64,000 nt of DNA from a virus. A model generated the notes under the pieces. That model searched no databases. It had not been told where the DNA came from and saw only the letters and a program-made list of their open reading frames with translations. Positions 1-25,374 of the stretch are shown here, piece after piece. The stretch covers positions 36,520 through 100,519 of IMG/VR virus record IMGVR_UViG_3300049844_000277; one strand, written 5' to 3'. A program made the position numbers and the translations under genes. Position 1 is the stretch's first letter; each line of letters starts with the position of its first letter.

Positions 1-1203
1 AAACATTCCCGTAGACCCGAGTTGCTCAAGAAGCTGTGGGTGCTGTGCGAATAGGTCAAAAATATGACCTTGCATAGCTATAATACCGTCCAGCACGTGG
101 TCTGGAATCTGGGTTCCGGGCGCTAACCGCTCCACAATCATCTTAACAAATTCAGGCGTAGTGAGAATAACGCCAGCAGCGGACAGCGTAGAAAGCACCT
201 GCGCGACGGGATACTTAGATAAAGACTTTAGCGTATCGTCGTCGAACGACGGCATTCGCTGAACCGCGGGAAGAATCATATCGCGGTAACGCTGAATACC
301 GACGGCTTCCTGTTCAGACAAGGGCGACGTTTTGTGGTCAACTGCTACGCCTCGCACAATTTTATCAATGTCCGCGATTTTACGAATAGCAGCGCGCTTC
401 TCGTCCATCGCGTCTAGGTACTCACCGAGTTCAGCGGAGGTGCGTATGTTATACGCATTCTCTTCGGCTACTTTTTTGATCATATAGCCCGTGAGATCAG
501 CTGGCTTGGTTACAAAACTCAAATCGAAGAACTTTGGAGATGGATTGAGAGCTCCAGCGCGCAAGCCGCTAGCGGTTACTTGTCGCATTCCAAACTTTAG
601 GTGATCACAATACTGTTTACGTGTCGGAGCTTTGTGACCACAAACTGTGCAAACATCGTAGGCTATACGGGTTCCCATGCTTACAGCCGGATATTCTCCA
701 TCCGCGATCCGTTCCGCCAAATCCGGCGCGAGCTCATTCCTAAGTCCTAGGAGCAGCTCAACTCGATGCATTTGGGAGTTCCAAAATGCTTTGAGAATGT
801 CGCCGCAAGATTTCAGCGGATCTTTATTAAGATGGTGCCTATAGATCTTCCCGTGCGTCTCAAAACGCTTGTAATGATTCGGTAGAACTTCTTCTTGCGT
901 GACCCACGCGCCATCCGCCTGACAACAACCGCAAGTAGGTTTGAAACCGGTCTTGTAGGGGAACTCGTTGAAGCCGTCGCCATTACGGTTTAAATCGTAG
1001 GTTTCGTACGCTCCTAGCGCGATAACAAGAACAATGCTTGTTCCAGGTTTCGGCTCCACCGCTTTGATGTACTCAGACGCCTCGCTAGCCGTCTTAGTGA
1101 ACTTTTCACGCAAAGGTCTACCGTTGGCACCCCATAGAAGTACCGGTTGAACCGTTGCTTCGCCTGTAGCGAAGTGCGTGTCTAGTTCATAGATTTTCTT
1201 CAC
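1..1203 (-). CDS. Prohead (capsid maturation) protease-like protein, possibly with scaffold-like C-terminal part; 3' end runs off the window
   Basis: Absent from the ORF track because it stays open to position 1. My translation from GTG at 1203 (GTGA overlap with the upstream stop) gives VKKIYELDTHFATGE...THGKIYRHHLNKDP...MHRVELLLGL...GEYPAVSMGTRIAYDVCTVCGHKA... The His ... Ser (VSMG) arrangement resembles HK97/S78-type prohead proteases. The remainder is helical. Confidence 0.4.
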   Translation of the reverse strand, partial: MKKIYELDTHFATGEATVQPVLLWGANGRPLREKFTKTASEASEYIKAVEPKPGTSIVLVIALGAYETYDLNRNGDGFNEFPYKTGFKPTCGCCQADGAWVTQEEVLPNHYKRFETHGKIYRHHLNKDPLKSCGDILKAFWNSQMHRVELLLGLRNELAPDLAERIADGEYPAVSMGTRIAYDVCTVCGHKAPTRKQYCDHLKFGMRQVTASGLRAGALNPSPKFFDLSFVTKPADLTGYMIKKVAEENAYNIRTSAELGEYLDAMDEKRAAIRKIADIDKIVRGVAVDHKTSPLSEQEAVGIQRYRDMILPAVQRMPSFDDDTLKSLSKYPVAQVLSTLSAAGVILTTPEFVKMIVERLAPGTQIPDHVLDGIIAMQGHIFDLFAQHPQLLEQLGSTGMF

Positions 1204-1592
1204 GCGAATAATCCTCGTAACAACTTTACCGCGTACTCCCGCCCTAGTAGCTGAACAGAACGGGTTGCGTCGTAATCGGCCCCAGACAATTTCTCAAGCT
1301 GCGCAGATAGCACATCATCAACGAGAGACGCGGCTGCCAGCTTGTGCATGAGCTCGTTAACGACAGTAGTATCCGAAGCTACCTTTTCACCAATTCCTTG
1401 GGCGGTGTTCCAAAGTTCCAAGAACGCCGTAACAGTATCCGATGACGCGCTCTTCACTGTCCCGAACAGATTATCGCACGTTGACGCCAATAGCTGCTGC
1501 GCTTCCGCTGACACTGAAGGGTCGTCACTCGCAGCCAGCTTCTCAAGCCCGGCCACGGTCTGTAGCGTCTTCCAGAACGTGGGGTAGTGCAT
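1200..1592 (-). CDS. Hypothetical protein
   Basis: ORF track 1200..1658. I prefer ATG at 1592 (MHYPTFWK...) because AAGGAG lies 6 nt upstream and it follows the upstream stop (1595-1597) by 2 nt. Confidence 0.5.
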   Translation of the reverse strand: MHYPTFWKTLQTVAGLEKLAASDDPSVSAEAQQLLASTCDNLFGTVKSASSDTVTAFLELWNTAQGIGEKVASDTTVVNELMHKLAAASLVDDVLSAQLEKLSGADYDATRSVQLLGREYAVKLLRGLFA

Positions 1593-1594
1593 AG

Positions 1595-1816
1595 CTACTC
1601 CTTGTCCGTTTCGGTCAGAGAAGTAAGCGCGCTCAGACCCTTCTGAATCTGACGCCACTCCGCCAAACGCGTCATCATCTTCGCACCAATAATCTCAGAC
1701 GCCGTCTTTGCGTCTATCTCTTCCACGCCATACATTTTAGCCGCTATCTTGTTAAAGCCGAAACGACGTACCGCCTCGTGGAATTCAGGCGCGATAAACT
1801 CAGTTAAGTCTTGCAT
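1595..1816 (-). CDS. Hypothetical small protein
   Basis: ORF track 1595..1846. ATG at 1816 (MQDLTEF...) is preceded by GGAGG and lies 1 nt after the upstream stop. Confidence 0.5.
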   Translation of the reverse strand: MQDLTEFIAPEFHEAVRRFGFNKIAAKMYGVEEIDAKTASEIIGAKMMTRLAEWRQIQKGLSALTSLTETDKE

Positions 1817-1817
1817 G

Positions 1818-2825
1818 TTAGTGCCCTCCGTACGTGGGCCGAGCATCCGCGATAGATCGCTCAGTATCCACTAAATTCTTGATAGTGGCATAATTTACGC
1901 CCGAGCCGCCAAGTACGGCTTCTCTAAGAAAAGACCTAACAGCATTAACATCTAAAGAAAGAGTAGGCGCGAATCTTACCATTGTACCGTAAGACTCTTT
2001 AAGCATCGACTTCGCCTCGGGATTACGCGAAATCGCGTCGCTTAGAACTGGGTCGGATTTGAGTAAAGTCTCGAATAGCGCTTTACGACGAGGTTCGACC
2101 ATAAAATGGTCTCTAAGCGCATCGAAACTCGTACCGATTCCGTGCGCCATTAAGCTAACCAGTGCTCCACCCGCTGACTGCCCTAAGCCTTTACCTAACC
2201 CTTCAACTACATTCTTTTGCGAAGATTCCCAGAACGTGGGTTCCGGCGGTAACGAACGTTTTACAGCACGGGACGCAGCTCTTGCGACAGCCGCTAAATC
2301 TTTTCTACGTTGTGCCCTTACTGCCGGAGGAATCTGGAAAGATGGTGTAGCTGCTTCCTTGGTCATCGAATGGAGCTCAGCTTTTTTCTCCAAAAACTTA
2401 TCCAGACTGGCGGTAATAACTCTCGTTGGATCCGCGTAAGCGTTCATGAGTTCTTCCTCATTTTGTCTCTGGGAAGCGTCAAAGGCTTTACCAAGTATAG
2501 GCGCTAAAAACGCAGTACCTATGGCGGCTCCAGCCAATCTAGGACGCTTGGAAAGAAAACCGTGTGCGCCCTGTAAACCTCGCGCTAAAACACCTGACTC
2601 GTTTGACGCAGGGGATAAAAATTTATCAATACCTCGACCAACGGTACCCGCTAAATTCTTAACACCTTCCGCGGTTCCCTTAGCGCTTTCAATAAGCGCA
2701 AGGCCACGACGTAGGTGTCCTCGTTGACCTTCGGGAAGCTCGGTGAGAACCTCGCGCGGATCTCTTCCGAGAGCCGTCTTCTCGAACAAAGCATCCACGT
2801 ATTCTTTAAAGAGTGCGTTATTCAC
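1818..2825 (-). CDS. Hypothetical protein (335 aa)
   Basis: Long ORF with GTG start 1 nt after the upstream stop, tightly packed in a co-oriented operon. No motif recognised. Confidence 0.55.
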   Translation of the reverse strand: MNNALFKEYVDALFEKTALGRDPREVLTELPEGQRGHLRRGLALIESAKGTAEGVKNLAGTVGRGIDKFLSPASNESGVLARGLQGAHGFLSKRPRLAGAAIGTAFLAPILGKAFDASQRQNEEELMNAYADPTRVITASLDKFLEKKAELHSMTKEAATPSFQIPPAVRAQRRKDLAAVARAASRAVKRSLPPEPTFWESSQKNVVEGLGKGLGQSAGGALVSLMAHGIGTSFDALRDHFMVEPRRKALFETLLKSDPVLSDAISRNPEAKSMLKESYGTMVRFAPTLSLDVNAVRSFLREAVLGGSGVNYATIKNLVDTERSIADARPTYGGH

Positions 2826-2826
2826 G

Positions 2827-3639
2827 TCAGCGCCCTAGAGCAGGCATGTTTTTATCGACCCAAGCTAACGCCTTCGTCATTTTCTCGTAGGTCTGCCGCT
2901 CGGCGCACGCTTCCTTCAAGAGCTTCAGTTCCGGTGTTTCATCGGTCACCACGCGCTCTTGTAAAAAAGCTACCTTTTCAAAATCGGGCGGCGTGTGCTT
3001 GACGCGTAACTCCTCATACAAGAAAGCCATTTCCGCGGAAGCATCTGCGCCTAATTCTGCCCATGCGTTCTTTTCAAATTCGCTGAACTTGGGTCCGTAT
3101 CCCGGTGCTTTCTTGAATGTGCGAGCCAGGGAAGCCAATTTCTCCTCCCACTTTGCTCCGGCGGAAATCTTTTCAAGCTTAAACTCTGTAGCCAACTTTC
3201 GAAGATTCATTACAACAATATCTTCGCGGGCAGGTTTTTCAGTATACTCGGCAGTCTTCTCTTCTAGAGGTCCATCGAACTTCCGACCCAAACGCTTTTC
3301 CCGCATCATGTCGGGAACTTCGTTAGCTAGCTTATCGTTATGAACGCTGGCCGGACGAGGAGGCTCATTAGCCGTATTTAGTAGATTTCGAATTACGGTC
3401 TCAGGATCCCCTGTATCGAATTCAATCATACGGTCAGGGGCTCCTTCTTTCGCCTTGAACATGTTTTGAAAAACATAAACATTGGCCAGGCGAACAAGCG
3501 TTCGAATCTCGTCCGGATTTAGCTTGTGCTCTGAAGCAAACTTTTCGCAGAGTTCGTTAAGACTCTTTTTCGATACGAGATGCTGCTCTGCGATTCCCTG
3601 CGCATTCTTAATAAACTCATTCTCAGACCAGCGTGGCAT
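2827..3639 (-). CDS. Hypothetical protein (270 aa)
   Basis: Long ORF in the co-oriented block. Charged and helical. No motif recognised. Confidence 0.55.
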   Translation of the reverse strand: MPRWSENEFIKNAQGIAEQHLVSKKSLNELCEKFASEHKLNPDEIRTLVRLANVYVFQNMFKAKEGAPDRMIEFDTGDPETVIRNLLNTANEPPRPASVHNDKLANEVPDMMREKRLGRKFDGPLEEKTAEYTEKPAREDIVVMNLRKLATEFKLEKISAGAKWEEKLASLARTFKKAPGYGPKFSEFEKNAWAELGADASAEMAFLYEELRVKHTPPDFEKVAFLQERVVTDETPELKLLKEACAERQTYEKMTKALAWVDKNMPALGR

Positions 3640-3701
3640 TGGAAAGCTCCTTGCGAAGTTGTGTCCAGCGCCACGCTGAGTAGAAGAAGTCGGCCATGGC
3701 G

Positions 3702-4394
3702 TTAGTGCAGAATATCATCGAGCGGAACGGGAGCTTTTTCAACTGGGATTGTTTCGTCCTTACCTTCCAAGGCAATCCGTAGCTCTTCGTAAGCTTGTTT
3801 CGCTTCTTGAGGCTCCATCTTCTCAAGAATCTCTGCGTTCTTGATAGCCGTGGTCCACCACTTCTGAGCCTCCTTGGCTACGCGACTTGTAAGGCTATTC
3901 CCCTTGTGCGACATTCCTCGATAAAAAGAATCGATCATCGTATGTCGAACAATGGTACGAGTATCCACGGCGTCGCGTCCGCCATACATCCAAACCAGAT
4001 AATCTGAGCCGACCATTACGCCCGTCTTCAACAGCTCTACTGCGTAAGGGTCTCCGTCATACATGGAAGCATAGCTAATTCTTTCCAACCGGTTTCTGAA
4101 AACCGTAACATCGAAAAAGAGGTACGTGTAAGTTAGTAAAACCGATACGGGAATACTAAGTACACGCGAAACCGTAGTCGGGTCTGCGTCAGACAAAATA
4201 AACGCATCCATGACTGCACGGTGATTGCTGTCTAAGTACAAGTCGTACGCGTACTCTACCGTCGGGCTCACTTCTCCTCGGTCAACTATGTACGCGTACA
4301 ATGACTTCTCTAACTCGCCTTCAGGCGCAGGCGCAGAAGTCTTTACCATTTCCAACACCGCCTCAAACCGATGGCGGGGAGATATCTGTCGCAT
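3702..4394 (-). CDS. Hypothetical protein (230 aa)
   Basis: Long ORF that starts 2 nt after the stop of the 927-aa gene. Confidence 0.55.
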   Translation of the reverse strand: MRQISPRHRFEAVLEMVKTSAPAPEGELEKSLYAYIVDRGEVSPTVEYAYDLYLDSNHRAVMDAFILSDADPTTVSRVLSIPVSVLLTYTYLFFDVTVFRNRLERISYASMYDGDPYAVELLKTGVMVGSDYLVWMYGGRDAVDTRTIVRHTMIDSFYRGMSHKGNSLTSRVAKEAQKWWTTAIKNAEILEKMEPQEAKQAYEELRIALEGKDETIPVEKAPVPLDDILH

Positions 4395-4396
4395 AA

Positions 4397-7180
4397 TTAC
4401 CCCCGATATACGCTAGGGTCGTTTTGATTTCGAAGAACCAGAGTATTCTGGTTAATCTTCAAAATTAAATCACCCATTCCGCGGAATGTCGAGCGCAGAT
4501 TATCTTCCAGGGAAACGTAAGCAATGTCTCCGACATCACCCTTAATTCGAGTCTCATCCATCCAAAGAGTGAGTAAAACCCGCCCTAAGTTATCCAGAGA
4601 TTTCTCAAGATTAGGGAGATAGCCGGCAACCATTTCCTTAATCGCCGGAGCTTGGGCCATTGATGCCAGCGCTGCAGCGTCAAACGTGCCCGCGTCGTTA
4701 AGCTGCCCCGCTTGCTCAATGAATTGCGGATTCACCTGAGACTGGACGGTATCCACCGAACCGTCATCCGCTGCCATCATAGCTTGCGGAGGCTGCTGCT
4801 GCGCCTGAGCATTAGGGTCAGCGGCCATTTGAGCATTAGGGTCCGCACCCATCTGCTGCTGCGGTGCAGCCATTCCTTGAACCGGCGCGCCTGCGCCCAT
4901 CATCGACGGGTCCATTGGACCACCCATCGCAGCTGCCGCTGCGGCGGGAGCAGCTCCGGCTCCCCCGCCACTAGCAATCATACTCGCCCGCTGCTGGATG
5001 GCTTGAACCATCTGCTGCATTTGCGTCAAAGCCTGCATCTGGCTTTGAATGTTCTGCATCTGTTCAGCGACCGCCATATCAACGGGCGACGGACCTTGCG
5101 GAGGCTGCATCTGCGCCATCTGCATCTGCTGCATCGCGGCCTCAGCGGGATCGGCTTGCTCAGGCTGCTTCTCGGCGGCGCTCTTAGCGCGGCTCCGGAA
5201 TCCGGATTCCATCTTAGCCATGCTGTTGAACCGCTCCCCTGCCTGACGTGATGTCTCGCTAGCGCCGGGCTTGGAGAGGCGGGCCGAGGGCTCTTGCATC
5301 TTGCGAAGAACCGCTGAATCAGCGCTGCGTACTTTTTCAGCGATTACTCGGGGATCCCTAATTGACGTACGGTTCTCAGCAACGCTCAGCCGAGCCGCCA
5401 CCTTCTCCAACTTCTCCGGCTCAATAATCCAGAAAGAATAGTTCCCCTTCTCCGCCGCTTGCTTCAGGGCAAACTCAGCGTCATCAACAGAGATGACCGC
5501 GTCCGTTGCCAGCTTACGCAACGCTGAAACGAAGTTTGGCGCGTACTCACCAGAGATATTGAAACCATTCTCTCCGGTGTACTTCGACACCTTCACCTTC
5601 TCCGCGCCTTCAGCCAACATAGCGTCGGTCGTCCAGCAGAAGATGCTCTTCGGCGTGGTGAGGAAATCGCGCTGCGTGAGCTCATTCTTGGTTGGAAACC
5701 AAACGAAGTTGCTCGGCAAATAGACAATGTCCCCGTGCGTAGGAATCATTAGCTTACTGCCAGGATATTTATCGTCAGTAACCAGCGTCTTCTTGCCCCA
5801 AGAACCAATCACATCGATCCGTCGACTACCCTCAAAATCAGAGGTAACTGAATCAATAGTAACCGGAGCCGTGGCAACAAACGATGCACCGCGACGCTGA
5901 ACAAAGATACCCTTCTGACCCTTGCGAGGACCTGCGGCAGACGCTTCACCAACAGCCTTCTTGAAGACCTCAGAGCCTTCAAGCTGACTCATCGCTACTT
6001 GCGTACCGAGAAGGTCCGTAGAATCTATGAGGTCGCCGTCTTCGGTAATACCGACGTAACGGTCAATATGAAACTCATCCCGATAGCCGTCCTTGCCAGG
6101 GACACGGTACCGCTCATTGTGGCCCTGCATCTCATTCGCAGGTGCTGCGTTTGAGGGACGGAAACGAATGTTACGCGAAGGAATTCGCTTACCTTCAGCA
6201 TCGCCGAATAGGTTGATGGGGTTCGCGATAACTAAAGCAACAACAGGCTTACCGTCGCGCTTCCATAACTTGTAAGCACCGGCATCCTTAGGCTCATGTA
6301 AATCAAGATACGGTTGAATCGCTACCGCGCGATTAACACGCTTACGGTCATCCTTGGCGTAATAGCCCTTTACCTTCACGCCTTGAAAAGCGGCGGGTGA
6401 CTTAGGCCCAAAGATGTCTTTGAATTCAGCGGACGTAGTCTTGTCGTCCGCGACATACAACGCGCCACCATGATTCTTGATTCCACCGCCGTAGTCAGCC
6501 GTTTTCAGCGCATCGACAAGCGGCTTTTCACCATAGAACCACACCGCTTGCTTGAGCAATCGGGGCCGCGTCTCAAGCATCTTGGCCGCAGCCTTCTTGA
6601 CGCGAGAGGGCGCATTGCTGAGGAAAGTTAAAAATGAAAGCTCAGGCTCAGTCTGATTTCGTGCTTCATCAAAGACACGACTCGCCTGCTTAACCGCACC
6701 AGAGACGTCCGAGGCATAGCTGTAACGTCCAGTCGTCGGAGGAACGACCGTATTACGAATGTCGACGTCCGTCGGCATCGTTGTGGGCGGAGTTACACCC
6801 TTGCCCATTTCACCCAGAGATTGCTTGTCCAACTCCTCCAACCAGTCTTTGGATAGTGGGACGAAGACATTCAGATTCTTGTAGTACAAAATGTCCAGCG
6901 GCTTAATCTGATTATCCGCCATCACAACAGGAACGTAGAGCGTCTGCCCTCGCCTAAGGATAACAAACGCGCCGACACCCGAGCCGTCATCGGGTGAAGT
7001 TTCCAGGACTTTGAATGTAACAACGTCCGGAGCAATATTGGGTAATTTCGAGAGGAGGACGTTGTACGCCATTTGGGAAAGACCTTGGTCGAACAAAGCT
7101 TTCGCTTGATCGCCGGTTCCTCCCAGCTGTCCCATCGCTTGCGTCCTAGGCGAAATCGCTGGCATGTCATCTCCCGACAA
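4397..7180 (-). CDS. Large hypothetical protein (927 aa) with Gln/Met/Ala-rich low-complexity segment; possibly virion-associated
   Basis: Uninterrupted 2.8-kb ORF. The segment near 4770-5180 encodes ...AMQQMQMAQMQPPQGP...QMQALTQMQQMVQAIQQ...GADPNAQMAADPNAQAQQQ... No enzymatic motif recognised. Confidence 0.6.
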   Translation of the reverse strand: MSGDDMPAISPRTQAMGQLGGTGDQAKALFDQGLSQMAYNVLLSKLPNIAPDVVTFKVLETSPDDGSGVGAFVILRRGQTLYVPVVMADNQIKPLDILYYKNLNVFVPLSKDWLEELDKQSLGEMGKGVTPPTTMPTDVDIRNTVVPPTTGRYSYASDVSGAVKQASRVFDEARNQTEPELSFLTFLSNAPSRVKKAAAKMLETRPRLLKQAVWFYGEKPLVDALKTADYGGGIKNHGGALYVADDKTTSAEFKDIFGPKSPAAFQGVKVKGYYAKDDRKRVNRAVAIQPYLDLHEPKDAGAYKLWKRDGKPVVALVIANPINLFGDAEGKRIPSRNIRFRPSNAAPANEMQGHNERYRVPGKDGYRDEFHIDRYVGITEDGDLIDSTDLLGTQVAMSQLEGSEVFKKAVGEASAAGPRKGQKGIFVQRRGASFVATAPVTIDSVTSDFEGSRRIDVIGSWGKKTLVTDDKYPGSKLMIPTHGDIVYLPSNFVWFPTKNELTQRDFLTTPKSIFCWTTDAMLAEGAEKVKVSKYTGENGFNISGEYAPNFVSALRKLATDAVISVDDAEFALKQAAEKGNYSFWIIEPEKLEKVAARLSVAENRTSIRDPRVIAEKVRSADSAVLRKMQEPSARLSKPGASETSRQAGERFNSMAKMESGFRSRAKSAAEKQPEQADPAEAAMQQMQMAQMQPPQGPSPVDMAVAEQMQNIQSQMQALTQMQQMVQAIQQRASMIASGGGAGAAPAAAAAAMGGPMDPSMMGAGAPVQGMAAPQQQMGADPNAQMAADPNAQAQQQPPQAMMAADDGSVDTVQSQVNPQFIEQAGQLNDAGTFDAAALASMAQAPAIKEMVAGYLPNLEKSLDNLGRVLLTLWMDETRIKGDVGDIAYVSLEDNLRSTFRGMGDLILKINQNTLVLRNQNDPSVYRG

Positions 7181-7194
7181 AAATCATTGTACTA

Positions 7195-7238
7195 CGTAAA
7201 GCGAAACGGCCGCCGGTCCATTAGGACCCAGCGGCCGT
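7195..7238 (-). terminator. Candidate rho-independent terminator after the 419-aa gene
   Basis: The minus strand reads ACGGCCGCTGGGTCC-TAAT-GGACCGGCGGCCGT (about 13 GC-rich bp with a small internal loop), followed by TTCGCTTT. Confidence 0.45.
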
Positions 7239-7268
7239 CGTGGGCCCACTAACTGGGAGCGAAGGAAC

Positions 7269-8528: not shown

Positions 8529-8562
8529 GAAAGTTTGCTCCTTTTACTTTTACTTTGGCCGG

Positions 8563-8591
8563 AGTGTAGGCCAATGGTTGAGATTTAACAA
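8563..8591 (-). promoter_or_regulatory. Candidate sigma-70-like promoter for the 419-aa gene
   Basis: The minus strand reads TTGTTA, a 17-nt spacer, then TACACT, about 35 nt upstream of the AAGGAG RBS. The host consensus is unknown, so this is weak. Confidence 0.25.
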
Positions 8592-8633
8592 TCAATGTAG
8601 TCGGTCGGCGCCGCTACGTACAACTTAGGAGAA

Positions 8634-9083: not shown

Positions 9084-9085
9084 AA

Positions 9086-10885: not shown

Positions 10886-10891
10886 GGGAAT

Positions 10892-11664: not shown

Positions 11665-11750
11665 CTAAAGCTTCGCGCTTTTTAACGGCATCCTTTAGTT
11701 TCTGCGCTAATTCTTCAGCGGCGATGCGCTGTCCTTCCTCGTAAGCGTAC

Positions 11751-18300: not shown

Positions 18301-20887
18301 CGATGAGTATGTCGTGAGGCATAACCTTCATGCCCTTCTTCACGACACCATTGGGGTCAAGCTTACGATACTGCTCTGCGGTATACTTCGACCCGTAGTA
18401 CTGCTGATGGATATCCCTGCCAACCTTGGAGTCGCGATCTACTTCAACAACTTCCTTGTACATATGCTCTGACGTTAACTTCTCGGCGGCGCCAGAGGAG
18501 ATAACGACGGCATCGTTGGAGTTCATTCCGTAATACGGAACGTACCCTACCGTCATATTCGTACCGAGAGCGAAGGAACCGTTGCGGGTAAAATTAGACT
18601 CCGCGAGCGGCTGATCCGCTTCTACCTTATCACCAGGCTTCACCAGAATGTCGTGATGAAGGTGTGTCTTAGATGCGAACGGAAAATTATTCTCGTATGG
18701 AACCCGAATCAAATCTTTCTCAGCAGCTACCTTTTCCCGATTACGCTCGGAGAGGTAGTCCTCTTTAAACTCATCCCAGGTATACTCATCCATGGAACCG
18801 TAGCCCCAAGGAGGACCGTGCTTCTCGTAAGCGCTTTTAGCGGCCTCTTTGGAATCGAAGCCAAGCATGCACTTGTCTTCGTCGTGAGACCCATCCTTCT
18901 TGCGCTGATGTACGACGTAAACATTATCGAAAGAACCATCTTCCTTCAGATAAACGTCGACCGTTTCACCGTCGTCGCCGACGGTCTTAGGAATGTGTCC
19001 GTAGGCCACGGACATCTTCTTTTCCCACTTCTCTCCTTCGGCGTTAGTGCCGGTACGAATATCTCCCGGTTCAAGCTCAATCTTAACGAGCACACCTTGA
19101 ACAGTCTTTTGACGCTTGACCGCCCCGCCTCGTTTCTCGAAAGCGCTCTTCTCGCTTAAGAAATCTTCAGCGTGCTTCTTTCCGCTAGGGTCGATGTAGA
19201 TGTATTGCCCATCAACCTTCACTACTTTGCCCGCTACAGGTGCCGTAGGAAGAACCAGCCCCGCGAGCTCCTTCTCCCAGCTTGAATGCTCAACACCCTT
19301 CTCAGTCAACTTATTGGCGGCTGATTGTACAAGAGGTGCTTCGCGATGAACGAGAGGAAGGGCTTGTGTTTGAACCTTACCACCCATGATGGCACGGTTC
19401 CCCTGCATCGACTCAAGGAACGGGACAAGGTTAGTTGCCGGAGAATACAACTGAGCCACGTCGTACAACTGGTGAGTCACCTTTGCCGCTGGTACGTGCT
19501 CCAACTGCCCTTTGTTCATTGCGGTGACCATTCCCGTAAGCTTTTGCTTAGGGAACGCCACGACCGCCTCGGACATTTGAGCCGCAGACAGCATCTCATA
19601 CTTACCGGACTTAATGTTCTTAGCTGCGGTGTAGAGATTTCCCGTAGCATCCCGGTGCGCCATCATCGCCGTGCGAATATCAATACCAGCGCGGAAGGAC
19701 TCAGACGTACGAACGGGGTCCAGTATCCCTAGATGACTCGAATGAATAGTACGCGCTTCAGCGGGAATCGCGCGCTCATTCGGAATACCTCCTTCGCCGA
19801 GAGATGTAACACGCACAGCGTGGTCGATGGCCTCCATCGGGTTGATGTGCGTGGGAATCGAGCTCAGTTGTGAACCCGTAAGAAAACTTCGGATGCCGGG
19901 CGAAAAGGGCGACGAAGGAAGAATCGCACGGAGTTCAGTCTTATGTGTTGCGCGACCCTTTACCTTATTTGCCAGGGCACGTGCATCCAGCGTTATACGT
20001 TCCTTGATAAAATCGTCTACCGAATGATACGTCTTGAAACGTAAAGCGTCACGATCATCAGTATCCGCATTATCCCGGTACACCTGTAATAGCCGCTTCG
20101 ACGCAACGAGTAGTGCCTGCGGCGTAACCGATGAAAAAGCGTGCCCCAAGGTTTGTTGGTTAACCTCGGGATCCATAGACGTAACAGCGTAAGCTGCTCG
20201 AATAGCATCAAGCTGTGTCTCAGGATTAGTCGCAGCACGTTTAGCCGGATGCACTACTTTCTCGTAAAGCTTATTCAAATGCTTATCGTGCTTACCTTCG
20301 AAAGCCGCCTCATTTTGATGAGCGACATCCGAGCCCCAATGAGTAGAAATATCAGCGTGCGGAACGCCTAATTTTCGAAGTACGGGGTAAAGCGGAATAG
20401 ATGTCGTCCCATACTCGATGTATGGATGTCCTTGGGCAGGGTCTAACGAAAGTCGAAAATTGGTTCCCTTCGACAAGTTAAAGGCGGCCTCTAGTTCCTC
20501 ATTTCCACGTCGCCGCGTATAGACGCCAGGCTTGAGCCGAAGTTGATTTGATACGTTGTACTCGTTACCGTCCAAAATAAAAGTATGCCGTCCTGTGAAA
20601 TAAGGAAGACTCAATAACGTAAAGTTCTTAACTTTCTCAACTTCTTTACCGGAAGCATCACGTAGTGTGACGGTTCCTTTTATCGGCTCAGAAAGAGAAC
20701 CACCGCTCAATAGCGCGTGCTTTTGATCGTTTGGGCCAAAGTCCTTTTCATGGACCTTCAGGTCACTGACCTCAATACTCTTATCCCGCAATGTCAGTGG
20801 AAAAGCGTTTCGCAACGCATCGAGCGCCTTTGCACGAATTTGAACTCGACGGGACTCGGCATCGGTAAGCACGGGAGTGAGCGACAT
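12377..20887 (-). CDS. rpoBC: DNA-directed RNA polymerase beta subunit fused to the N-terminal half of beta', interrupted by three inteins
   Basis: Beta motifs: FILDGNEYNVSNQLRLKPGVY, GEGGIPNERAIPAEARTIHSSHLGILDP, GNRAIMGGKVQTQALPL, VGDKL|TGRHGNKGVVS, GKMEFNALVAHNA. In the same frame follow beta' motifs: RWSHIELAEPVVNPVF, LPVLPPIMRPI, VNRAPTLHRYG, FNADYDGN|TFQIHVPV. Removing the three inteins (354+378+498 aa) leaves about 1606 aa. Confidence 0.9.
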   Translation of the reverse strand: MSLTPVLTDAESRRVQIRAKALDALRNAFPLTLRDKSIEVSDLKVHEKDFGPNDQKHALLSGGSLSEPIKGTVTLRDASGKEVEKVKNFTLLSLPYFTGRHTFILDGNEYNVSNQLRLKPGVYTRRRGNEELEAAFNLSKGTNFRLSLDPAQGHPYIEYGTTSIPLYPVLRKLGVPHADISTHWGSDVAHQNEAAFEGKHDKHLNKLYEKVVHPAKRAATNPETQLDAIRAAYAVTSMDPEVNQQTLGHAFSSVTPQALLVASKRLLQVYRDNADTDDRDALRFKTYHSVDDFIKERITLDARALANKVKGRATHKTELRAILPSSPFSPGIRSFLTGSQLSSIPTHINPMEAIDHAVRVTSLGEGGIPNERAIPAEARTIHSSHLGILDPVRTSESFRAGIDIRTAMMAHRDATGNLYTAAKNIKSGKYEMLSAAQMSEAVVAFPKQKLTGMVTAMNKGQLEHVPAAKVTHQLYDVAQLYSPATNLVPFLESMQGNRAIMGGKVQTQALPLVHREAPLVQSAANKLTEKGVEHSSWEKELAGLVLPTAPVAGKVVKVDGQYIYIDPSGKKHAEDFLSEKSAFEKRGGAVKRQKTVQGVLVKIELEPGDIRTGTNAEGEKWEKKMSVAYGHIPKTVGDDGETVDVYLKEDGSFDNVYVVHQRKKDGSHDEDKCMLGFDSKEAAKSAYEKHGPPWGYGSMDEYTWDEFKEDYLSERNREKVAAEKDLIRVPYENNFPFASKTHLHHDILVKPGDKVEADQPLAESNFTRNGSFALGTNMTVGYVPYYGMNSNDAVVISSGAAEKLTSEHMYKEVVEVDRDSKVGRDIHQQYYGSKYTAEQYRKLDPNGVVKKGMKVMPHDILIAGVTRGKLSASDALLGNLKKTLVTPYRELVRTWDHDFEGEVMDVYVTDKRVVVTVKTREPMRVGDKLCYDAETEVLTWEGWKPIADVRITDKICTLQNGENIEYLEPDAIHSYPEGGRMYRIESQQVDLFVTDGHHMYVQPRNEKSFQLLPAYEIAGKRVSYKKDGIWVGHSPESFVFDSITVRAGQGGRGLRVLDDKALPTKTLAALLGAFLSEGNLITIEESGTYGIEITQINQPNRKQLEKFLREEGILFTDTGDKVRIHSKQYWQYFKQFGKSYEKFIPLEVFAWSRADQETLFNWLMWGDGHTKNGQPICYKTTSKRLADDVQRLALHIGKAANVSLAKAEGYQTIKGKDFWCRDYWQVRIINSKLTPTVNHGHIKRQKGQVECFVDSYKSPVYCVTVPGHVLYVRRNGKSVWCGNTGRHGNKGVVSLIVPDHKMLQDETGKPIEVLYTSAGVISRINPSQILETCVAKVAKKIGKPIVVENFSGRDNVQWAKDLLKEHKVKDKETLIDPVSGKKIPGILVGPQYVLRLFKTTETNYAARGTGAYDVNQQPIKGGDEGAKAVGKMEFNALVAHNARNVLRETAAIKSQKNDEFWRAIQLGLPLPPLKSSFVYDKFIGMLHGAGVKVDSRGSISTLSPLTDKDILRMSSGEVQNEKLVRAKDLAAERGGLFDPAVTGGTTGTRWSHIELAEPVVNPVFADPARRLLGMTAKDFDQYHHTNGGAAVKKKLNAIDVKARIAELRNSIKSLSGTKLDDAVKQLKFLEALNRQELKPGDAYVLSKLPVLPPIMRPILPGKSGSELVVGDSNYLYQSAILHNQSLRKQIESPILPPDEQAKLRQNLFHAVGAVIGTHESDNPKLQKRNVKGFLEHITGKTTPKCYDDQTDILTEKGWVRFSKYTGKTRVATVNLDTREFEWQKPTALVSMPFDGDLIHTRSRELDLCVTPNHEHVVSYRRKRVSNGKALYVWTPWEKVRADTFIGTDRRRVMVSAEEWEGTFPELVFAGDTCEVSTDNKKRRTANLVGTFTPDPLAFAEFVGWWIAEGWISTTGTQVSLCQAATSPHVRAVDLCFKKLDIPFVRKTYTRKDGYQVIWWTIRLRSLADWLTHHCGRGCESKHLSSDILAWPSAMLEGLLRGYLRGDGTLHPSLAKNVKNPKTHYRRKPLSAHAGTASLQLIDDLQHLAAKIGYQVIFRGICPPVKDHHLPHYLFSVRGFSDVTIESGSFTEAYPYKGTVYCVTVPNGTVVVRRNGKPSVSGNSSFFQKRIMKRQQDISGRGTIAPDGSLSMDEIGIPIDMLWGMYGKFIISRLIRRGFGAIQAKEMLEKKHPAAHDALMAEIKERPVMVNRAPTLHRYGFIGAHAVPVAGKTIRVNPFAELGFNADYDGNCFLGSTKVVLTAEGAACKALLGDEAKETAMKFAAETRVCWTSAVQALVEAELQEIPHAEEPYSIDKNGARSYAVPEGFRVLSYDHSASKSVMSPVTGLTIEDGCEVAKVEMRRGLSVTASTNESLCIYNHETGQIEATAPSDSVGKLAPVVRHLPLTGSQGDFEFGWMVGAFLSDGFLLGETDHYFGYTKVSDVHRERFAAAVNAFEGKLIKRNTYREVHDASNGITGQSIKDHFSGAQKCVELFKTCYLDERVPGRSCLSKRVPAFGDWSEEARWGVLIGMLNGDGTLTVSAGKAKLQVMAALHTSSAALAASLRFLLQTIGVRCSVSEAYPKEGRLQKAVAYTIPISTVDLQRNVSWLRRGIWNNSKSLEALNLLEADELVDQVDIVPVPKNLMTLASSRTGPCAEDSSFCASLATLRSKRKEAPYVTRQNARRMLHFFRTAKTPDVDAWARIVENVGITWDLVESVEVLRKETVYDLIVPDTQIFAVNDGLVVWDTFQIHVPVLKPAIDEVKGMTLSNLLFSDREKDSLMVAPRMEAMLGVHLASKAESSANDKVRHFKNREEALAAYKRGEITLNTRVEVGT
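12644..14137 (-). mobile_element. Intein 3 (498 aa, LAGLIDADG type) inside the catalytic NADFDGD-type motif of beta'
   Basis: Junctions are FNADYDGN|CFLGSTKVVLTAEG... and ...VYDLIVPDTQIFAVNDGLVVWD|TFQIHVPV. Dodecapeptide motifs are MVGAFLSDGF and LIGMLNGDGT. The C-terminus is atypical (Trp-Asp instead of His-Asn). Confidence 0.75.
14522..15655 (-). mobile_element. Intein 2 (378 aa, LAGLIDADG type) in beta' N-half
   Basis: Junctions are ITGKTTPK|CYDDQTDILTEKGW... and ...VVVRRNGKPSVSGN|SSFFQKRIMKR. The site corresponds to the bacterial LLGKRVDYSGRS region. Dodecapeptide motifs are FVGWWIAEGW and LRGYLRGDGT. Confidence 0.8.
17039..18100 (-). mobile_element. Intein 1 (354 aa, LAGLIDADG homing-endonuclease type) in beta, inside the GDK..GRHGNKG motif
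   Basis: Junctions are VGDKL|CYDAETEVLTWEGW... and ...LYVRRNGKSVWCGN|TGRHGNKG. Dodecapeptide motifs are LLGAFLSEGN and WLMWGDGH. Confidence 0.85.
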
Positions 20888-21053
20888 GTTCGTAAGTATA
20901 GACCCTTATTTTGGTATCAGTATATGAGTCACATGCTGTGGCTCATAGAGGGAAGTACCATCACCACCACCAGAGGGGAAGTACAGTGAAAGTGGCAAGG
21001 GTACAGAAGAGGGGTGTAGTAAAAGTAACAACGAGAAAGGAAGTGAGGGCGAG

Positions 21054-21725
21054 ATGTTCCGACAGGAACTAAAGCTCCCCCTCCCCCCAATCCCGTTGCT
21101 ACGGGAAGCGCTCATCTGCGCCGTGGATGACCCTCGAAGATGGGGACAGCCAGGAACTCCGGGTGAAACAATGCCCGAAGCCAAGCAGATGAACATTCTC
21201 GCAGAAATCGCCGCCGACCTCTGCAGGGGTACGCGGTGTTTCTTCTGCGGGAGACAGCAACCGGAGACTCCTCTCGAGGATGTATACCGGTTCAATCCCA
21301 ACACCCCGCTGTGCGAATGTCTTACGCCGTATAGGCGTATGGCGTTCGATTACATCGAGGGATGGGATTGTGAGGAAGGGAAGAAGTCCATCCTCACGCA
21401 AGTGGAGAAGGGAACGATGGACCCGCAGACAAAAGTCTATCAGTATATCTGTAAGTGCGGGACGTTGGCGGTAGTCACCGCTAAAACGCTCGCGAGTGGG
21501 TTGCGAACCTATCAAAAGCACAAGAGACGTAACTTGTGCGATAGGTGCTACAAAGAGCAGGGTAGAAAGCTGGCCGCAGCTATGGTTATGGCTGCGAGGT
21601 CCAAGCATGGGGCGGAGCAAGGTCCGCATGCTAAAATTAATAAAACACCCACCCTACTGAAACCATCAGTAGATACCACAAACATAGTTGTAAATGCACC
21701 GGGGGTAGTAATCCCTCAGTGCTAG
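21054..21725 (+). CDS. Cys-rich hypothetical protein (223 aa), divergent from the RNAP gene
   Basis: GAGG-type RBS before ATG 21054; an alternative ATG lies at 21171. Cys pairs: CRGTRCFFCG, CECL, CKCG, CDRC. A hairpin terminator follows. Confidence 0.45.
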   Translation: MFRQELKLPLPPIPLLREALICAVDDPRRWGQPGTPGETMPEAKQMNILAEIAADLCRGTRCFFCGRQQPETPLEDVYRFNPNTPLCECLTPYRRMAFDYIEGWDCEEGKKSILTQVEKGTMDPQTKVYQYICKCGTLAVVTAKTLASGLRTYQKHKRRNLCDRCYKEQGRKLAAAMVMAARSKHGAEQGPHAKINKTPTLLKPSVDTTNIVVNAPGVVIPQC

Positions 21726-21800
21726 AAGGGACCGGTACTTGAACATCAAGTACGTCGCTTTGGTCGCCCTGATTCTGCTCGGGGTTTAAGGCCAAGGCAG

Positions 21801-21847
21801 CTCTCTCGTGGGAGGTATCTCTCACGAGAGAGTCTTGGTCTTGTTTC
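21801..21847 (+). terminator. Candidate rho-independent terminator
   Basis: CTCTCTCGTGGGAG-GTAT-CTCTCACGAGAGAG forms a ~14-bp stem, followed by TCTTGGTCTTGTTTC. It sits between convergent genes. Confidence 0.5.
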
Positions 21848-22343
21848 AAATATCAGGCTCTGGCGCAGTCCCGTCTACGCGAGGTTCCGGCTTCTTTTTT
21901 TTCGTCGGAATCTTCTCATACCAGCGTAACGAGATAATTACAGAACCATCCTTCTGCGGAATCTCTTGCTCCGAACCAAAGAGCATCTTACCCGCCAGAA
22001 TCGCATTGATTGTCTCTTCGTACTCAGGACGAGTTACGTGCGGGCACTCGTAATCGCCTGTGTCCGGTAAATTCGCTGCGCCAGAAGCGAAATCATTTCC
22101 GCAGCGGGAGCACGATTCCCATGGGCGGAAAATAGTAAACACTTTACGATGAATCTTGAAGTCATACGCCGTAACTCCGGCTATACCATCGGCCTCTGTA
22201 TCTATGACGCGATGCTTGTCGTTAAATGGTAACGGAAAACCATCTGGAAGGTCTCTTCCACGCTCATCAGGCTCAGATGGCCCCTGCATCGCGGCGCTGA
22301 GTACAGATGCGAAGTCAGAACCTACTTCAGCTTTTAACGGCAT
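21846..22343 (-). CDS. Hypothetical protein (165 aa)
   Basis: ORF directly downstream of the portal-like gene. Contains CSRCGN...ECPH. No family recognised. Confidence 0.5.
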   Translation of the reverse strand: MPLKAEVGSDFASVLSAAMQGPSEPDERGRDLPDGFPLPFNDKHRVIDTEADGIAGVTAYDFKIHRKVFTIFRPWESCSRCGNDFASGAANLPDTGDYECPHVTRPEYEETINAILAGKMLFGSEQEIPQKDGSVIISLRWYEKIPTKKKKPEPRVDGTAPEPDI

Positions 22344-22362
22344 TAATCACTCCCGAAGATAT

Positions 22363-25300
22363 TTATACAGGCTGATTTTGTTGCGCCATTTGCGCCTTCG
22401 CCTGCTGTCCTTGTTGGTTCTGAAGATCTTCCAGGCGTTGAATGACAACCGCATGCATCACAGCGTCTTCCTTACTTAAGCTATCCAACTGTGAACGCCT
22501 AGAACCAACATCCAGCCCCATGAGCTGCTGCACTATCTGGTCAGCCTGCGCGATGACCGCCTGCTGGTCGTAGTTGAGCCCAGGAGTACCTTGAGCCTGT
22601 AGCTGAACCTGCTGGGACAAGTTATTCTGTAGTTTTCGTAGCTCATTCTGGACGCGCTGATTGTGCCGCGCCTCATCAAGAGTTTCTTGTAGACGCTTCT
22701 CTCGTTCTGCGTCCAAATCAATGTCGAGTCGCTCTAGTATGGTAGTCATTGAGACGTACGAGGGACCCGCTTGCCCGGTAGCCATGCTGAGCAGTAATTG
22801 TTTAGACTCAGTGTCATCGACCATCTTCAAAGGCGTAAGTTTCGCCTCTATCTTCTCCCAGCCAAGATACCGGGACATCTGGTCGCTGTACCACTGTAGT
22901 AGGTCATTCATATCATCCGCGTGCCCTTGCGTTTGATTCTGAATGAGCCGGAGAGTTGCCTCCATGCCTGCTTTAGTTAGTCCACCGTAGAGGAACTCCT
23001 GCGGAATACCTAACGCAGCCATAATGCTCTTCTCAGCTTCTTGAAGCTCACCGAGCGTTAACATCGCCCGTCCATCGCCACCAAGATTGGATACACCAAG
23101 AGCTACTGGTGCCATCATTATGTGTAAGGGGTCACGTCGCCAGCGACGAATATTTTGTTTCATTTCATCTTGCCAACGCGCAAGAGAAATCATTTGCGTA
23201 AAATCTTGCTGTCCGTTTTGTGCGGGATGCAAGATACGCATTGGCACGACGTGCTCCAGCGCGATCGAATTTTTAGTAGCCCCACCCGCGATACAAAACG
23301 TGGAATCCTCCGCGATCTTGAAGTCAATGTATTGTTCCTCTTCCGACTCCTCTACCACGCTCACTCTCGCCGCAAAATAATCTTTCCAGAAAAAGCCACT
23401 CTTGCCGATGGTAATCTCTTCCGCATCCTCCCAATTCCATAGCGCGTAAAGCCGCTCTTGGGACGCACCGCTAACCCGTACGTGGTAACTCGGTCCGTTT
23501 GGGGTAATAACACGCCCATCAGCAAGCGCGTGAATCGGGGTAATGTGCTCACGAATCGTCGCAATACATCCTACGTGAAGGAGCATACGGTAAACATCAT
23601 ACGCAAGGCCCGCACTGGAGGTGGCGAGAGTATCTTGCCCTTCCCGCGTGTGACCATCCGCCTCCCAGAGACCTTTCAAGAATGCGAGCTTTACAGAATC
23701 CGGCGCATGAAATACTTCCGAAGGAACGCGCTTAACGCGCGCGGTTCCCGGAACCATGCCCTTGATGAGAGCCTTCACAATCACATCACACAAGGTAACC
23801 ATGCTACAGTTACCTCTCTGATTGTATCCACCGCACTCCAAGCCAAACTCTCGCCGAATTGCTTCCCGGAGGGGCTCTTCCGTCTTACTGCCCATCGCAA
23901 TCATAACGGTACGCTGGTTACAGGAACCATTTCCAACGTAATGCCCGAGGATATACGCGAAGTCCTCTGTCATCGGGCGCGTCGCGGGGAGGCGTTTTGG
24001 AACGGACCCTTCTTTCAGCTTCCTACGCGCAATCTTCCCAGGGACTCCCTTCACATGCTCACCGGCGCTCTCCGCCTCAAACGCCTGCGCGGAGGGTAAT
24101 GACATCGCGCTGTAAACGTAATTCTCGGTGTTCGCGAAACCGGTGTACTTAGCAACATCTACCTGCTGCGGCTCCGACGGAATTGTCCGGGGGTAGAGGA
24201 TATAATCACCCTTCTCGAACTGTTCCGCGGGACACATCACCTCTTCGTACAAATGCGGATTCTGAAGAATCTCCGACGACGTCTGCTTGTCTTTCGTATC
24301 CGACCGACGTGCGTCGCTTGTCCGTCGAAGGGTAAGGATGGGATGGTGCGGGGAAAATACCCCGCTGAGATGCCGAAGCCCCGAAAGCGTAATACGGCAT
24401 CCGATTTCATCATCCTTCGCATCCCGATACCACTTCTGCTCGACTGGACGCCACCGCCCGAGGTGTGTTCTCACCAAGTCGCCAACACGTACATCATCCG
24501 CGGGCACGAGACCGGTAGACGTCTCAATGAGTGTATCGAGACTGACGCACTCGTTCGCCTTCCTTAGCGTCATGGTGTAGAGGAAGAGCTTGATTGTCGA
24601 CGCAAGCGGAGGAAATCCCCACTGCTGGTCAATACCCGAAGGACTTGGAACCTTGATATGAAAAAGAGCGTCCTTCTCAAAACGAAACGTCTTGTTGTCT
24701 CGAATGTTTTCCAAGAACTCCATAGGCATCGAATTAATAAGATGCTTTGACCCCGATTTAACTTGGTCCTTAACGTCCTGCGGGATGTTATAGTAGTATA
24801 CAGATTGTCCCGTAATCGGATTGTAATCTATATCCATTAGCTTGGGATCCCACCGAATAATATGGACCCGGCTAGCAGCTAGAATCTTACGGTCAACGAC
24901 TGTACCACGCACATCTCGCTTGCAATGCAGGCAGTGGTAGGTGAAAGCCAGCGATTTCAGCTCAAACTTGTAATCAGTGTGCTGAATAGCAACGAGTTGC
25001 TGACAACTAGGACACTTCAGACTACGAACGAACGGCTTATAAATTGATGTAAAATGATTGCCATATATGTGCTTATCGAGCGACGCCATGAGAAGCGCAC
25101 TCTTAATCTTCAAAGTTTTTTCAAAAAGACGGCGATAGTTGCGCCGGAGTGCTTCATTCGATGTTCCGTACTCGAGGTCAGTTACGACGAGCTCTCCAAA
25201 TTTACGCAGAGCCGCGTAAACATGTGCACTATTATACATCAAATATTCGCACCATTTAAAGAGATCTTTTAGCTTTCTTGGTACAAAACCCGTTAGGAAG

Positions 25301-25374
25301 TCATGTGCAGGGTTTGGGTGTGAAGCCGCCCGGTCAAAAACGGACATTGTATCAGTGTTAGGAAGGTCAGCCAT
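22363..25374 (-). CDS. Portal-like protein interrupted by an intein
   Basis: The extein is about 576 aa. N-terminal Zn-ribbon-like CPSCQQ...CLHCKR. The central part reads ...EKSIMAALGIPQEFLYGG.... The long Gln-rich helical C-terminus is reminiscent of podovirus portal barrels. It is the first gene of the large minus-strand block. The assignment is tentative. Confidence 0.45.
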   Translation of the reverse strand: MADLPNTDTMSVFDRAASHPNPAHDFLTGFVPRKLKDLFKWCEYLMYNSAHVYAALRKFGELVVTDLEYGTSNEALRRNYRRLFEKTLKIKSALLMASLDKHIYGNHFTSIYKPFVRSLKCPSCQQLVAIQHTDYKFELKSLAFTYHCLHCKRDVRGTVVDRKILAASRVHIIRWDPKLMDIDYNPITGQSVYYYNIPQDVKDQVKSGSKHLINSMPMEFLENIRDNKTFRFEKDALFHIKVPSPSGIDQQWGFPPLASTIKLFLYTMTLRKANECVSLDTLIETSTGLVPADDVRVGDLVRTHLGRWRPVEQKWYRDAKDDEIGCRITLSGLRHLSGVFSPHHPILTLRRTSDARRSDTKDKQTSSEILQNPHLYEEVMCPAEQFEKGDYILYPRTIPSEPQQVDVAKYTGFANTENYVYSAMSLPSAQAFEAESAGEHVKGVPGKIARRKLKEGSVPKRLPATRPMTEDFAYILGHYVGNGSCNQRTVMIAMGSKTEEPLREAIRREFGLECGGYNQRGNCSMVTLCDVIVKALIKGMVPGTARVKRVPSEVFHAPDSVKLAFLKGLWEADGHTREGQDTLATSSAGLAYDVYRMLLHVGCIATIREHITPIHALADGRVITPNGPSYHVRVSGASQERLYALWNWEDAEEITIGKSGFFWKDYFAARVSVVEESEEEQYIDFKIAEDSTFCIAGGATKNSIALEHVVPMRILHPAQNGQQDFTQMISLARWQDEMKQNIRRWRRDPLHIMMAPVALGVSNLGGDGRAMLTLGELQEAEKSIMAALGIPQEFLYGGLTKAGMEATLRLIQNQTQGHADDMNDLLQWYSDQMSRYLGWEKIEAKLTPLKMVDDTESKQLLLSMATGQAGPSYVSMTTILERLDIDLDAEREKRLQETLDEARHNQRVQNELRKLQNNLSQQVQLQAQGTPGLNYDQQAVIAQADQIVQQLMGLDVGSRRSQLDSLSKEDAVMHAVVIQRLEDLQNQQGQQAKAQMAQQNQPV
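23269..24549 (-). mobile_element. Intein 4 (427 aa, LAGLIDADG type) in the portal-like gene
   Basis: Junctions are TLRKANE|CVSLDTLIETSTGLV... and ...STFCIAGGATKN|SIALEHVVP. Dodecapeptide motifs are ILGHYVGNGS and LKGLWEADGH. Confidence 0.8.

Follow-up and report, generated by a model that had tools for sequence, protein, structure and literature searches.

Does a tailed phage that keeps the genes of its RNA polymerase (RNAP) among its head genes also carry the enzyme in its virion? The question was raised by a stretch of 64,000 nucleotides (positions 36,520 to 100,519 of the IMG/VR virus record IMGVR_UViG_3300049844_000277; hereafter the window), in which two RNAP genes were found on the minus strand between a portal gene and a protease-like gene, within the block at positions 1 to 25374. 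A sequence-only reading of this DNA had proposed from gene order that the polymerase is made late, packaged, and injected. Our analysis suggests that this phage does, on balance, probably package its RNAP in the virion, a reading supported by homology and by the published virion proteome of Arash, a cultured relative of about 30% identity. The packaging part of the earlier proposal is backed by this homology, and none of the contrary observations that it had named, such as virion proteomes lacking the RNAP subunits, was encountered. Its comparison with the polymerases of phiKZ and N4 holds for function and not for descent, as the enzyme is a single core of the bacterial type accompanied by sigma-family genes, and a second RNAP set was not seen.

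As judged from its domains, the polymerase is a bacterial-type core made of two polypeptides: (i) a fusion of beta with the N-terminal part of beta' (beta+beta'N; 12377..20887, minus strand; 2836 aa, or 1606 aa without its three inteins), which matched Rpb2_3, Rpb2_6 (E-value 1.9e-41), Rpb1_1, and Rpb1_2; and (ii) the C-terminal part of beta' (beta'C; 9086..10885, minus strand; 599 aa), which matched Pfam Rpb1_5 (E-value 7.6e-19). The two genes had been described before as RNAP halves; their placement between the portal and protease genes stands, but the division is not one into beta and beta'. The fusion was collinear with open reading frames (ORFs) of 1604 aa in contig L002 and 1580 aa in contig L007 and with the 1525-aa gp206 of Arash, while beta'C shared 33% identity with Arash gp216 across 99% of its length and was 82 to 85% identical to its counterparts in L002 and L003. 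The best matches of the RNAP genes were PHROG families from phages. One beta'C locus per genome was detected in Arash and in the Vibrio phage D181, and neither alpha nor omega was recognised among the ORFs of the block.

The gene order around the RNAP genes was compared across relatives that included contigs from IMG/VR (L002 and L003 among them) and from JGI, with several independent contigs spanning 127 to 190 kb. The order was found to be portal, small gene, RNAP fusion, beta'C, gp218-like gene, gp219-like gene, protease-like gene, and capsid protein gene, with further genes before beta'C and before the protease-like gene. It was kept in L002, L003, and L006 (75 to 87% identity), in L007 (portal 53% identical), in D181, and in Arash (about 30%), such that the synteny suggested as a check by the sequence-only reading extends down to about 30% identity. 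Arash (OQ632216, gp204 to gp226; PMC10585845), with a genome of about 180 kb, a single RNAP set, and sigma-family genes, displays the series portal, small gene, beta+beta'N, beta'C, gp218, gp219, gp222 (protease-like), and major capsid protein. It differs from the window in its level of amino acid identity (about 30 to 35%), in having zero inteins and no pyrophosphatase-like insert, in a helicase gene (gp217) after beta'C, and in several genes on the opposite strand that lie between its RNAP genes. The Vibrio phages D181, D148, and D69 (OZ196140 and others) have the same module order, with beta'C about 33% identical to that of the window, and their portal, RNAP, protease-like, and capsid proteins are 51 to 62% identical to those of Arash; in D181 (L004 13650-19164), a homing-endonuclease gene divides beta+beta'N into two ORFs. 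'Hypothetical protein' is the annotation given to nearly all of the D181 module genes, those for RNAP and portal included. The RNAP ORF shares 8 nt in Arash, and 38 or 1 nt in D181, with the ORFs before it in the portal unit, and the small ORF just before it likewise overlaps or adjoins that of the portal; this arrangement implies a single transcript with the portal gene. Unlike Arash, the window has an opposite-strand gene and a hairpin between the portal unit and the RNAP ORF. Separate full-length beta' and beta genes were found in Rhizobium phage TM30 and Cobetia phage Carin-5, and since these sit in the replication module, the head-module position goes with the fusion/split architecture. 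These two features together define a group made up of Arash, D181, and the window.

The evidence on packaging itself comes from the liquid chromatography-mass spectrometry of Arash particles obtained by sucrose gradient (PMC10585845), the one virion proteome available for a relative, in which both RNAP subunits rank among the top five proteins by spectral count. Gp206 (beta+beta'N) ranked top of all proteins, with 128 unique peptides, 3516 spectra, and 100% coverage; Gp216 (beta'C) had 40 unique peptides and 1210 spectra, and Gp218 had 36 unique peptides and 1149 spectra. For comparison, the same table gives 32 unique peptides and 877 spectra for the portal protein (gp204, thus detected in the virion preparation), 30 and 1333 for the capsid protein, and 2 unique peptides each for DNA ligase, primase, and two helicases. 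Expressed as spectra per residue, which we computed from these rows, the RNAP subunits reached 2.3 and 2.0 and the portal 1.5.

Independent support for packaging is provided by a domain within beta. A type I inorganic pyrophosphatase-like domain, InPase (PF18823), was detected at aa 578-727 of the fusion (18707..19156, minus strand; E-value 1.6e-32), where it scored 112.6 bits with the curated cutoff at 26.8 and interrupts beta between Rpb2 domain 3 and domain 6. Its best PDB match was to the C-terminal portion of 9b41_L, a chain that bears the name 'gp19 Portal' (E-value 2.8e-13), and its pyrophosphatase-like motif YGHIPKTVGDDGETVDV aligned with YGFVPNTLGSDGDPVDA of the Helicobacter pylori pyrophosphatase, a weak match (E-value 0.022). 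The domain in beta may have pyrophosphatase activity. The insert was present in L002 and L003 and in two metagenomic RNAP fusions that represent 50% clusters (P0244 and P0245); Arash has nothing at this position, which in L007 is taken by a different insert, about 105 aa long. Among the 40 cultured-phage records listed of 463, the InPase domain occurred mostly in proteins annotated as minor head, portal, internal head, or DarB-like. According to the InPase passages of Iyer et al. 2017 (PMC5512222), the clade is mostly found in polyvalent proteins of phages, proteins likely to be packaged in the virion, and roles in conflict have been proposed for injected polyvalent proteins of this type. The domain in beta belongs to the same family as those of polyvalent proteins and of 9b41, with YGxIPxT and DGxxVD-type motifs kept; those domains occur in the context of head-internal proteins, whereas the domain described here is an internal insertion in RNAP beta; an RNAP context was seen neither in those InPase passages nor among the 40 records listed.

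The RNAP genes are flanked by genes for head morphogenesis. The gene that opens the block, as the sequence-only reading had it, is a portal gene (22363..25374, minus strand; 1003 aa, 576 aa when spliced). The portal ORF matched no portal family in the Pfam and PHROG scans, and a profile of 56 homologues searched against PDB sequences returned noise only and no portal; with sequence profiles negative, the assignment draws on the fold and on homology (30% identity) to gp204 of Arash, whose annotation is 'portal protein'. An AlphaFold (AF2) model of the spliced protein, built from the 56 homologues, was of moderate confidence (mean predicted local distance difference test, pLDDT, 71.5). In a Foldseek search of PDB with this model, the top 50 matches were all portal entries or neck, connector, or vertex entries of tailed viruses that contain a portal, with E-values from 2.5e-7, a probability of 1.00, and template modelling (TM) scores of up to 0.54 on the target; G20c, lambda, T4, N4, and HTV1 were among them. 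The 1003-aa ORF is accordingly identified as a portal. At an E-value of 0.001 or below, the spliced 576-aa sequence had 660 database homologues, including the portal gene of the window itself, found on its 167,875-bp source contig from JGI.

The other flank is formed by a protease-like ORF (1..1203, minus strand), of which the window holds the first 401 codons; the full-length protein in the source contig has 659 aa (P0121), with a prohead protease domain of the fold of T4 gp21 and herpesvirus assemblin followed by a long helical C-terminal region. A head maturation protease family (phrog_18299) was matched at an E-value of 5e-8 by the window ORF and 4e-9 by a full-length relative, and the assemblin-like fold of the protease domain was recovered by fold search, such that both the portal and the protease assignments, which the sequence-only reading had wished to see checked by profile search, stand under fold search. 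Four residues, His110, His123, His124, and Ser175 (in AVSMG), were invariant across 55 protease-like homologues, with a His-Ser spacing that we take to be similar to that of gp21. The family profile returned noise only when searched against PDB sequences. The C-terminal remainder, predicted to be mostly helical, would fit a scaffold-like tail. That the block ends with this gene, as previously stated, does not hold: the protease fold is confirmed, but the gene is cut at the window edge, and the sequence beyond position 1, where the capsid gene would lie outside the window, was inferred from the 85% relative L006. In L006, a gene about 2 kb downstream on the same strand encodes a protein homologous to the major capsid protein of Arash (37% identity, E-value 8e-61), and a capsid-protein homologue was likewise found 2 to 3 kb downstream of the protease-like gene, on the same strand, in Arash, D181, and L006. 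The region is thus a head-morphogenesis module that runs past the window edge in the order portal, protease/scaffold-like protein, and major capsid protein, and the phage is an uncultured Arash-like tailed phage.

Within the module, the 16 minus-strand ORFs of positions 1 to 25374 form a chain with 94.8% coding sequence and with junctions of -64 to +105 nt; the sole exception is an interval of 958 nt between the start of the 2836-aa ORF (20887) and the end of a 165-aa ORF (21846). The tight packing and overlap noted before are therefore borne out for the 16 ORFs, but the strand uniformity is not, because the interval contains a conserved plus-strand gene (21054..21725) for a Cys-rich protein of 223 aa with several CxxC pairs. 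By tblastn, this ORF was 45 to 48% identical to sequences in L002 and L003 (E-value 1e-47 to 1e-51), while the minus-strand ORFs that overlap it scored far worse against the same contigs; the GC skew changes sign in the 2-kb bin at this position, and L007 has an opposite-strand gene of 304 aa in the same place. A strong hairpin at 21800..21833, with 15 bp in its stem, lies in the convergent gap where the plus-strand gene stops at 21725 and the 165-aa gene stops at 21846; it is a candidate bidirectional terminator. Since the plus-strand gene and the hairpin break the chain, the block comprises at least two units, namely the portal gene with the 165-aa gene, and the RNAP operon onward.

Upstream of the RNAP ORF, the sole conserved stretch in an alignment of the window, L002, and L003 was a promoter-like element of about 45 nt (20888..20935, minus strand) that reads ATACTGATACCAAAATAAGGGTCTATACTTACGAAC-ATG into the start codon, places TATACT 7 nt from the RNAP start codon, and includes no Shine-Dalgarno sequence; it was not conserved in L007 or Arash. 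Its sequence suggests a dedicated promoter that would give a near-leaderless mRNA. CTATACT was found seven times; five of these copies lie between genes, upstream of a start and in the correct orientation, and those of the portal and RNAP genes are among the five. In relatives the RNAP copy is conserved and the portal copy is not. A shared portal/RNAP promoter motif was dropped as an explanation of CTATACT, given that the portal copy is unconserved and the copy upstream of the RNAP gene is absent in L007 and Arash. The copy upstream of the 927-aa gene in L002 and L006 lies inside a hairpin loop and is probably no promoter. CTATACT also stands just upstream of starts at 25410, 44241, and 61542/61549. 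Consensus sigma-70 promoters appeared depleted between positions 7000 and 26000, with 6 found versus 17.2 expected, a difference that is suggestive only.

The RNAP fusion is interrupted by three inteins, delimited by comparing it with two intein-free relatives, the L002 ORF of 1604 aa and gp206 of Arash. Intein 1 (aa 930-1283; 17039..18100, minus strand) splits a motif of beta between GDKL and TGRHGNKG and matched LAGLIDADG_3 (E-value 3.7e-16). Intein 2 (aa 1745-2122; 14522..15655, minus strand) lies in beta' and is absent from the intein-free relatives. Intein 3 (aa 2251-2748; 12644..14137, minus strand, with flanking codons at 14138-14140 and 12641-12643) lies in the Mg-binding NADFDGD loop. 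The portal carries a LAGLIDADG intein as well (aa 276-702, 427 aa; 23269..24549, minus strand; Pfam LAGLIDADG_3 E-value 7.7e-12, and Hint_2), which the portals of L002 and Arash lack at exactly this insertion point; some other portal homologues (P0011 and P0012) do contain an intein. The portal intein and RNAP inteins 1 and 2 showed the features of class 1, with Cys at position 1 and a terminal Asn followed by Ser or Thr, and with block B sequences TDGH, TPNH, and SPHH, respectively; the penultimate His was absent in all three. Intein 3 departs from class 1: Cys1 and a Thr at +1 are present, but block B reads TxxN, the intein ends in W-D, and the residue at -1 is Asn. This Asn stands where intein-free relatives have the third catalytic Asp. 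The relatives read NADYDG-D-TFQIHVP, whereas the window reads NADYDG-N before the intein, which begins with CFLGST, includes VTASTNES, and ends in LVVW-D, and TFQIHVP after it. Canonical splicing would thus yield NADYDGN-TFQ with the third Asp lost. The same arrangement was found in P0241, a Logan protein of 48% identity, and it is therefore conserved rather than a sequencing error. His B:10 has been described as the residue most conserved among inteins, and a C-terminal Asp is tolerated in some of them (PMC4031507). Five inteins were seen in the 64 kb, in the portal, the RNAP fusion (three), and DNA polymerase A (within 34144-37527); they end in KN, GN, GN, WD, and KN, with a penultimate His in none of the five. 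The portal and RNAP genes of L002 and L003 hold zero inteins.

Several points weigh against packaging. The Arash particles were purified by sucrose gradient only, as many as 116 of the 272 annotated features were listed for them, and the authors allow for carry-over of abundant enzymes (PMC10585845). Table 2 is also inconsistent, several rows combining 2 unique peptides with about 100% coverage and hundreds of spectra, and is to be used with caution for this reason. The only sigma gene of the window, a sigma-70-family gene with regions 2 and 4 (31260-32093, minus strand), resembles Arash gp196, which is off the virion table in the portion considered, rather than gp10, which is on it. A single RNAP must also serve later transcription, such that late synthesis is not required; the plus-strand gene, hairpin, and conserved element separate the RNAP operon from the portal gene, and the timing of their expression could therefore differ; and an enzyme of two chains and about 245 kDa would have to pass the tail. 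In a different account, which we hold to be rather unlikely while giving it serious weight, the head-module placement would be historical only, the RNAP would be a non-virion enzyme that transcribes middle and late genes with phage sigma factors, and its detection in Arash would reflect carry-over of an abundant DNA-bound protein. Such carry-over was raised by the Arash authors, and the 116 proteins called 'structural' include ligase, primase, and ribonucleotide reductases. The account is also favoured by the conserved element of the RNAP operon and the hairpin that sets it off from the portal gene, by the need for the single RNAP set in later transcription, and by the related RNAP-encoding phages TM30 and Carin-5 with their genes in the replication module. 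It is opposed by the same proteome, where Gp206 has 128 unique peptides and the highest spectral count versus 2 peptides for each replication enzyme, by the conservation of the order to about 30% identity with overlap of the RNAP and portal-unit ORFs in Arash and D181, and by the InPase insert, which is of a domain clade otherwise found in head-internal proteins.

Packaging need not mean early transcription. The RNAP or its unspliced precursor could be a head-internal structural or DNA-organising component, or could deliver a pyrophosphatase or anti-host activity in the manner of polyvalent proteins; we regard this as improbable. The occurrence of InPase in injected polyvalent proteins with proposed conflict roles (in the passages cited above) agrees with it, as does the replacement of the third catalytic Asp by Asn that would result if intein 3 were spliced canonically, which makes an active polymerase questionable. 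However, every other catalytic motif is retained with strong conservation (GRHGNKG, the two leading Asp residues of NADYDG, and the Rpb1/Rpb2 domain matches), relatives without the intein have the full NADYDGD, and sigma-factor genes accompany the RNAP. That the region is bacterial rpoBC DNA or a chimeric assembly and no phage module at all might be suspected because the contig is metagenomic, and fused rpoB-rpoC genes exist in some bacteria. This origin is effectively refuted by synteny in cultured phages, and we give it next to no chance: the same order recurs among cultured phages, in two groups, and on several independent contigs 127 to 190 kb long, the window also encodes a large terminase subunit along with the portal and the prohead protease, and the best RNAP matches are to phage families.

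If packaging is indeed the case, the genes of the phage's own bacterial-type RNAP core would have become resident in the head module, where the subunits and the gp218-like 927-aa protein would be made along with the head proteins and incorporated into the prohead as internal proteins. The RNAP would then be retained in the DNA-filled capsid and delivered to the host with the genome; together with a phage sigma factor, it could transcribe the early genes without the host polymerase, and the pyrophosphatase domain in beta could remove the pyrophosphate product. The identities of the genes, their architecture, and the kept order are shown directly, while packaging in this phage, late expression, injection, sigma dependence, and pyrophosphatase activity are what we infer. 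The Arash paper makes no mention of rifampicin (PMC10585845). In a bolder joint reading, which we put forward as possible but doubtful, the RNAP core would be a regular head-internal cargo of a widespread uncultured phage group and, in this clade, would have a built-in pyrophosphatase, thus forming a self-contained injected machine that is presumably sigma-dependent, and the chemistry of intein 3 must either regenerate the third Asp or gate the polymerase post-translationally.

Host-independent early transcription by an injected polymerase is known in three unrelated forms, those of N4, phiKZ/AR9, and the crAss-like gp66. The N4 virion RNAP (vRNAP) is a single-subunit T7-like enzyme and gp66 is a highly divergent single-chain two-barrel enzyme; both are giant polymerases that reside in the capsid and are ejected into the host, and the RNAP gene of crAss-like phage was reportedly placed among virion genes by Drobysheva et al. 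in 2021. Neither is a bacterial-type beta/beta' core, unlike the RNAP of the window. The vRNAP of phiKZ and AR9 is a multisubunit two-barrel enzyme of the cellular type that is packaged, injected, and active in host-independent early transcription (PMC7598289, PMC7824862). The phiKZ group has two paralogous RNAP sets, virion and non-virion, of 4 to 5 polypeptides each and no sigma factor (PMC7598289, PMC7824862), whereas one set was seen in the group of the window, with beta fused to beta'N and with sigma-70-family genes. The window RNAP is thus placed outside the phiKZ-type vRNAP family, and the resemblance is functional only. A broader set is formed by mReC, the multi-subunit-RNAP-encoding Caudovirales (Weinheimer and Aylward 2020, PMC7481178), uncultured tailed phages with cellular-type beta and beta' on contigs of up to >200 kb. 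That paper makes no mention of virion packaging, portal synteny, or inteins and uses 'fused' once, about crAssphage, and the sample ids of L002, L003, and L006 did not occur in its supplements. Phage-encoded cellular-type beta/beta' and the hallmarks of tailed phages (large terminase subunit, portal, and protease) were found together in the window, which by these genes comes from an uncultured Arash-like phage that probably falls within the broader RNAP-encoding tailed phages of PMC7481178.

The Arash-type system is of a kind already known and little studied. Should Arash-type packaging be true, it would constitute a fourth solution to injected transcription, based on a near-complete bacterial-type core that seemingly works with sigma factors. 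The phages concerned are abundant in metagenomes, as the 660 portal homologues given above indicate, and Arash on Salmonella would then offer a tractable system for prohead targeting and tail passage of a large cellular-type RNAP. An RNAP with an inserted pyrophosphatase domain and a conserved intein in the NADFDGD loop that costs a catalytic Asp if spliced canonically are both undescribed, as far as we could find.

The remaining genes of the block are all on the minus strand. The 165-aa gene that follows the portal gene (21846..22343) was 65 to 68% identical in L002 and L003 and matched no family. Between the two RNAP genes lie a gene for a ferritin-like protein of 209 aa (11751..12380; PF00210, E-value 4.3e-11), which was conserved in L002 and L003 and had no match in the two fetched Arash regions (L001 and L008), and two small genes of 119 and 138 aa (10892..11664). 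After beta'C come genes for proteins of 149 and 419 aa (7269..9083), kept in L002 and L003 and without family match. The compositional features noted for these proteins by the sequence-only reading were recovered: the 149-aa protein is rich in Gly (24 G) and the 138-aa protein in Pro (23 P), the 419-aa protein holds two copies of a repeat (42% identity over 71 aa, E-value 1e-15), and the 927-aa protein has a low-complexity stretch, rich in A, Q, M, and P, at aa ~601-810. The 927-aa protein (4397..7180) is a homologue of Arash gp218, which its N- and C-terminal parts match; it had no match in Pfam, PHROG, or PDB (phmmer against PDB). Five genes of 230, 270, 335, 83, and 152 aa (1200..4394) complete the block, of which the 230-aa one matches Arash gp219 and none matched a family. 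Most of the small proteins of the block returned nothing in the Pfam and PHROG scans, and a megablast search of positions 1-25000 against cultured phages gave zero matches.

Elsewhere in the window, the sole Rfam match was a tRNA. A reverse-transcriptase gene was found at 47331-48467 on the plus strand (RVT_1, E-value 2.4e-14); because no template/variable repeat pair was found within positions 43000-52000, it is probably not part of a diversity-generating retroelement. A non-coding gap of 496 nt (38298-38793) adjoins the large terminase gene and includes the 22-nt palindromic sequence GGAGTCAGCGTAGCGCTGACAT at 38334 and 38508 together with a weaker third copy; the gap may represent a packaging site or an array of terminators.

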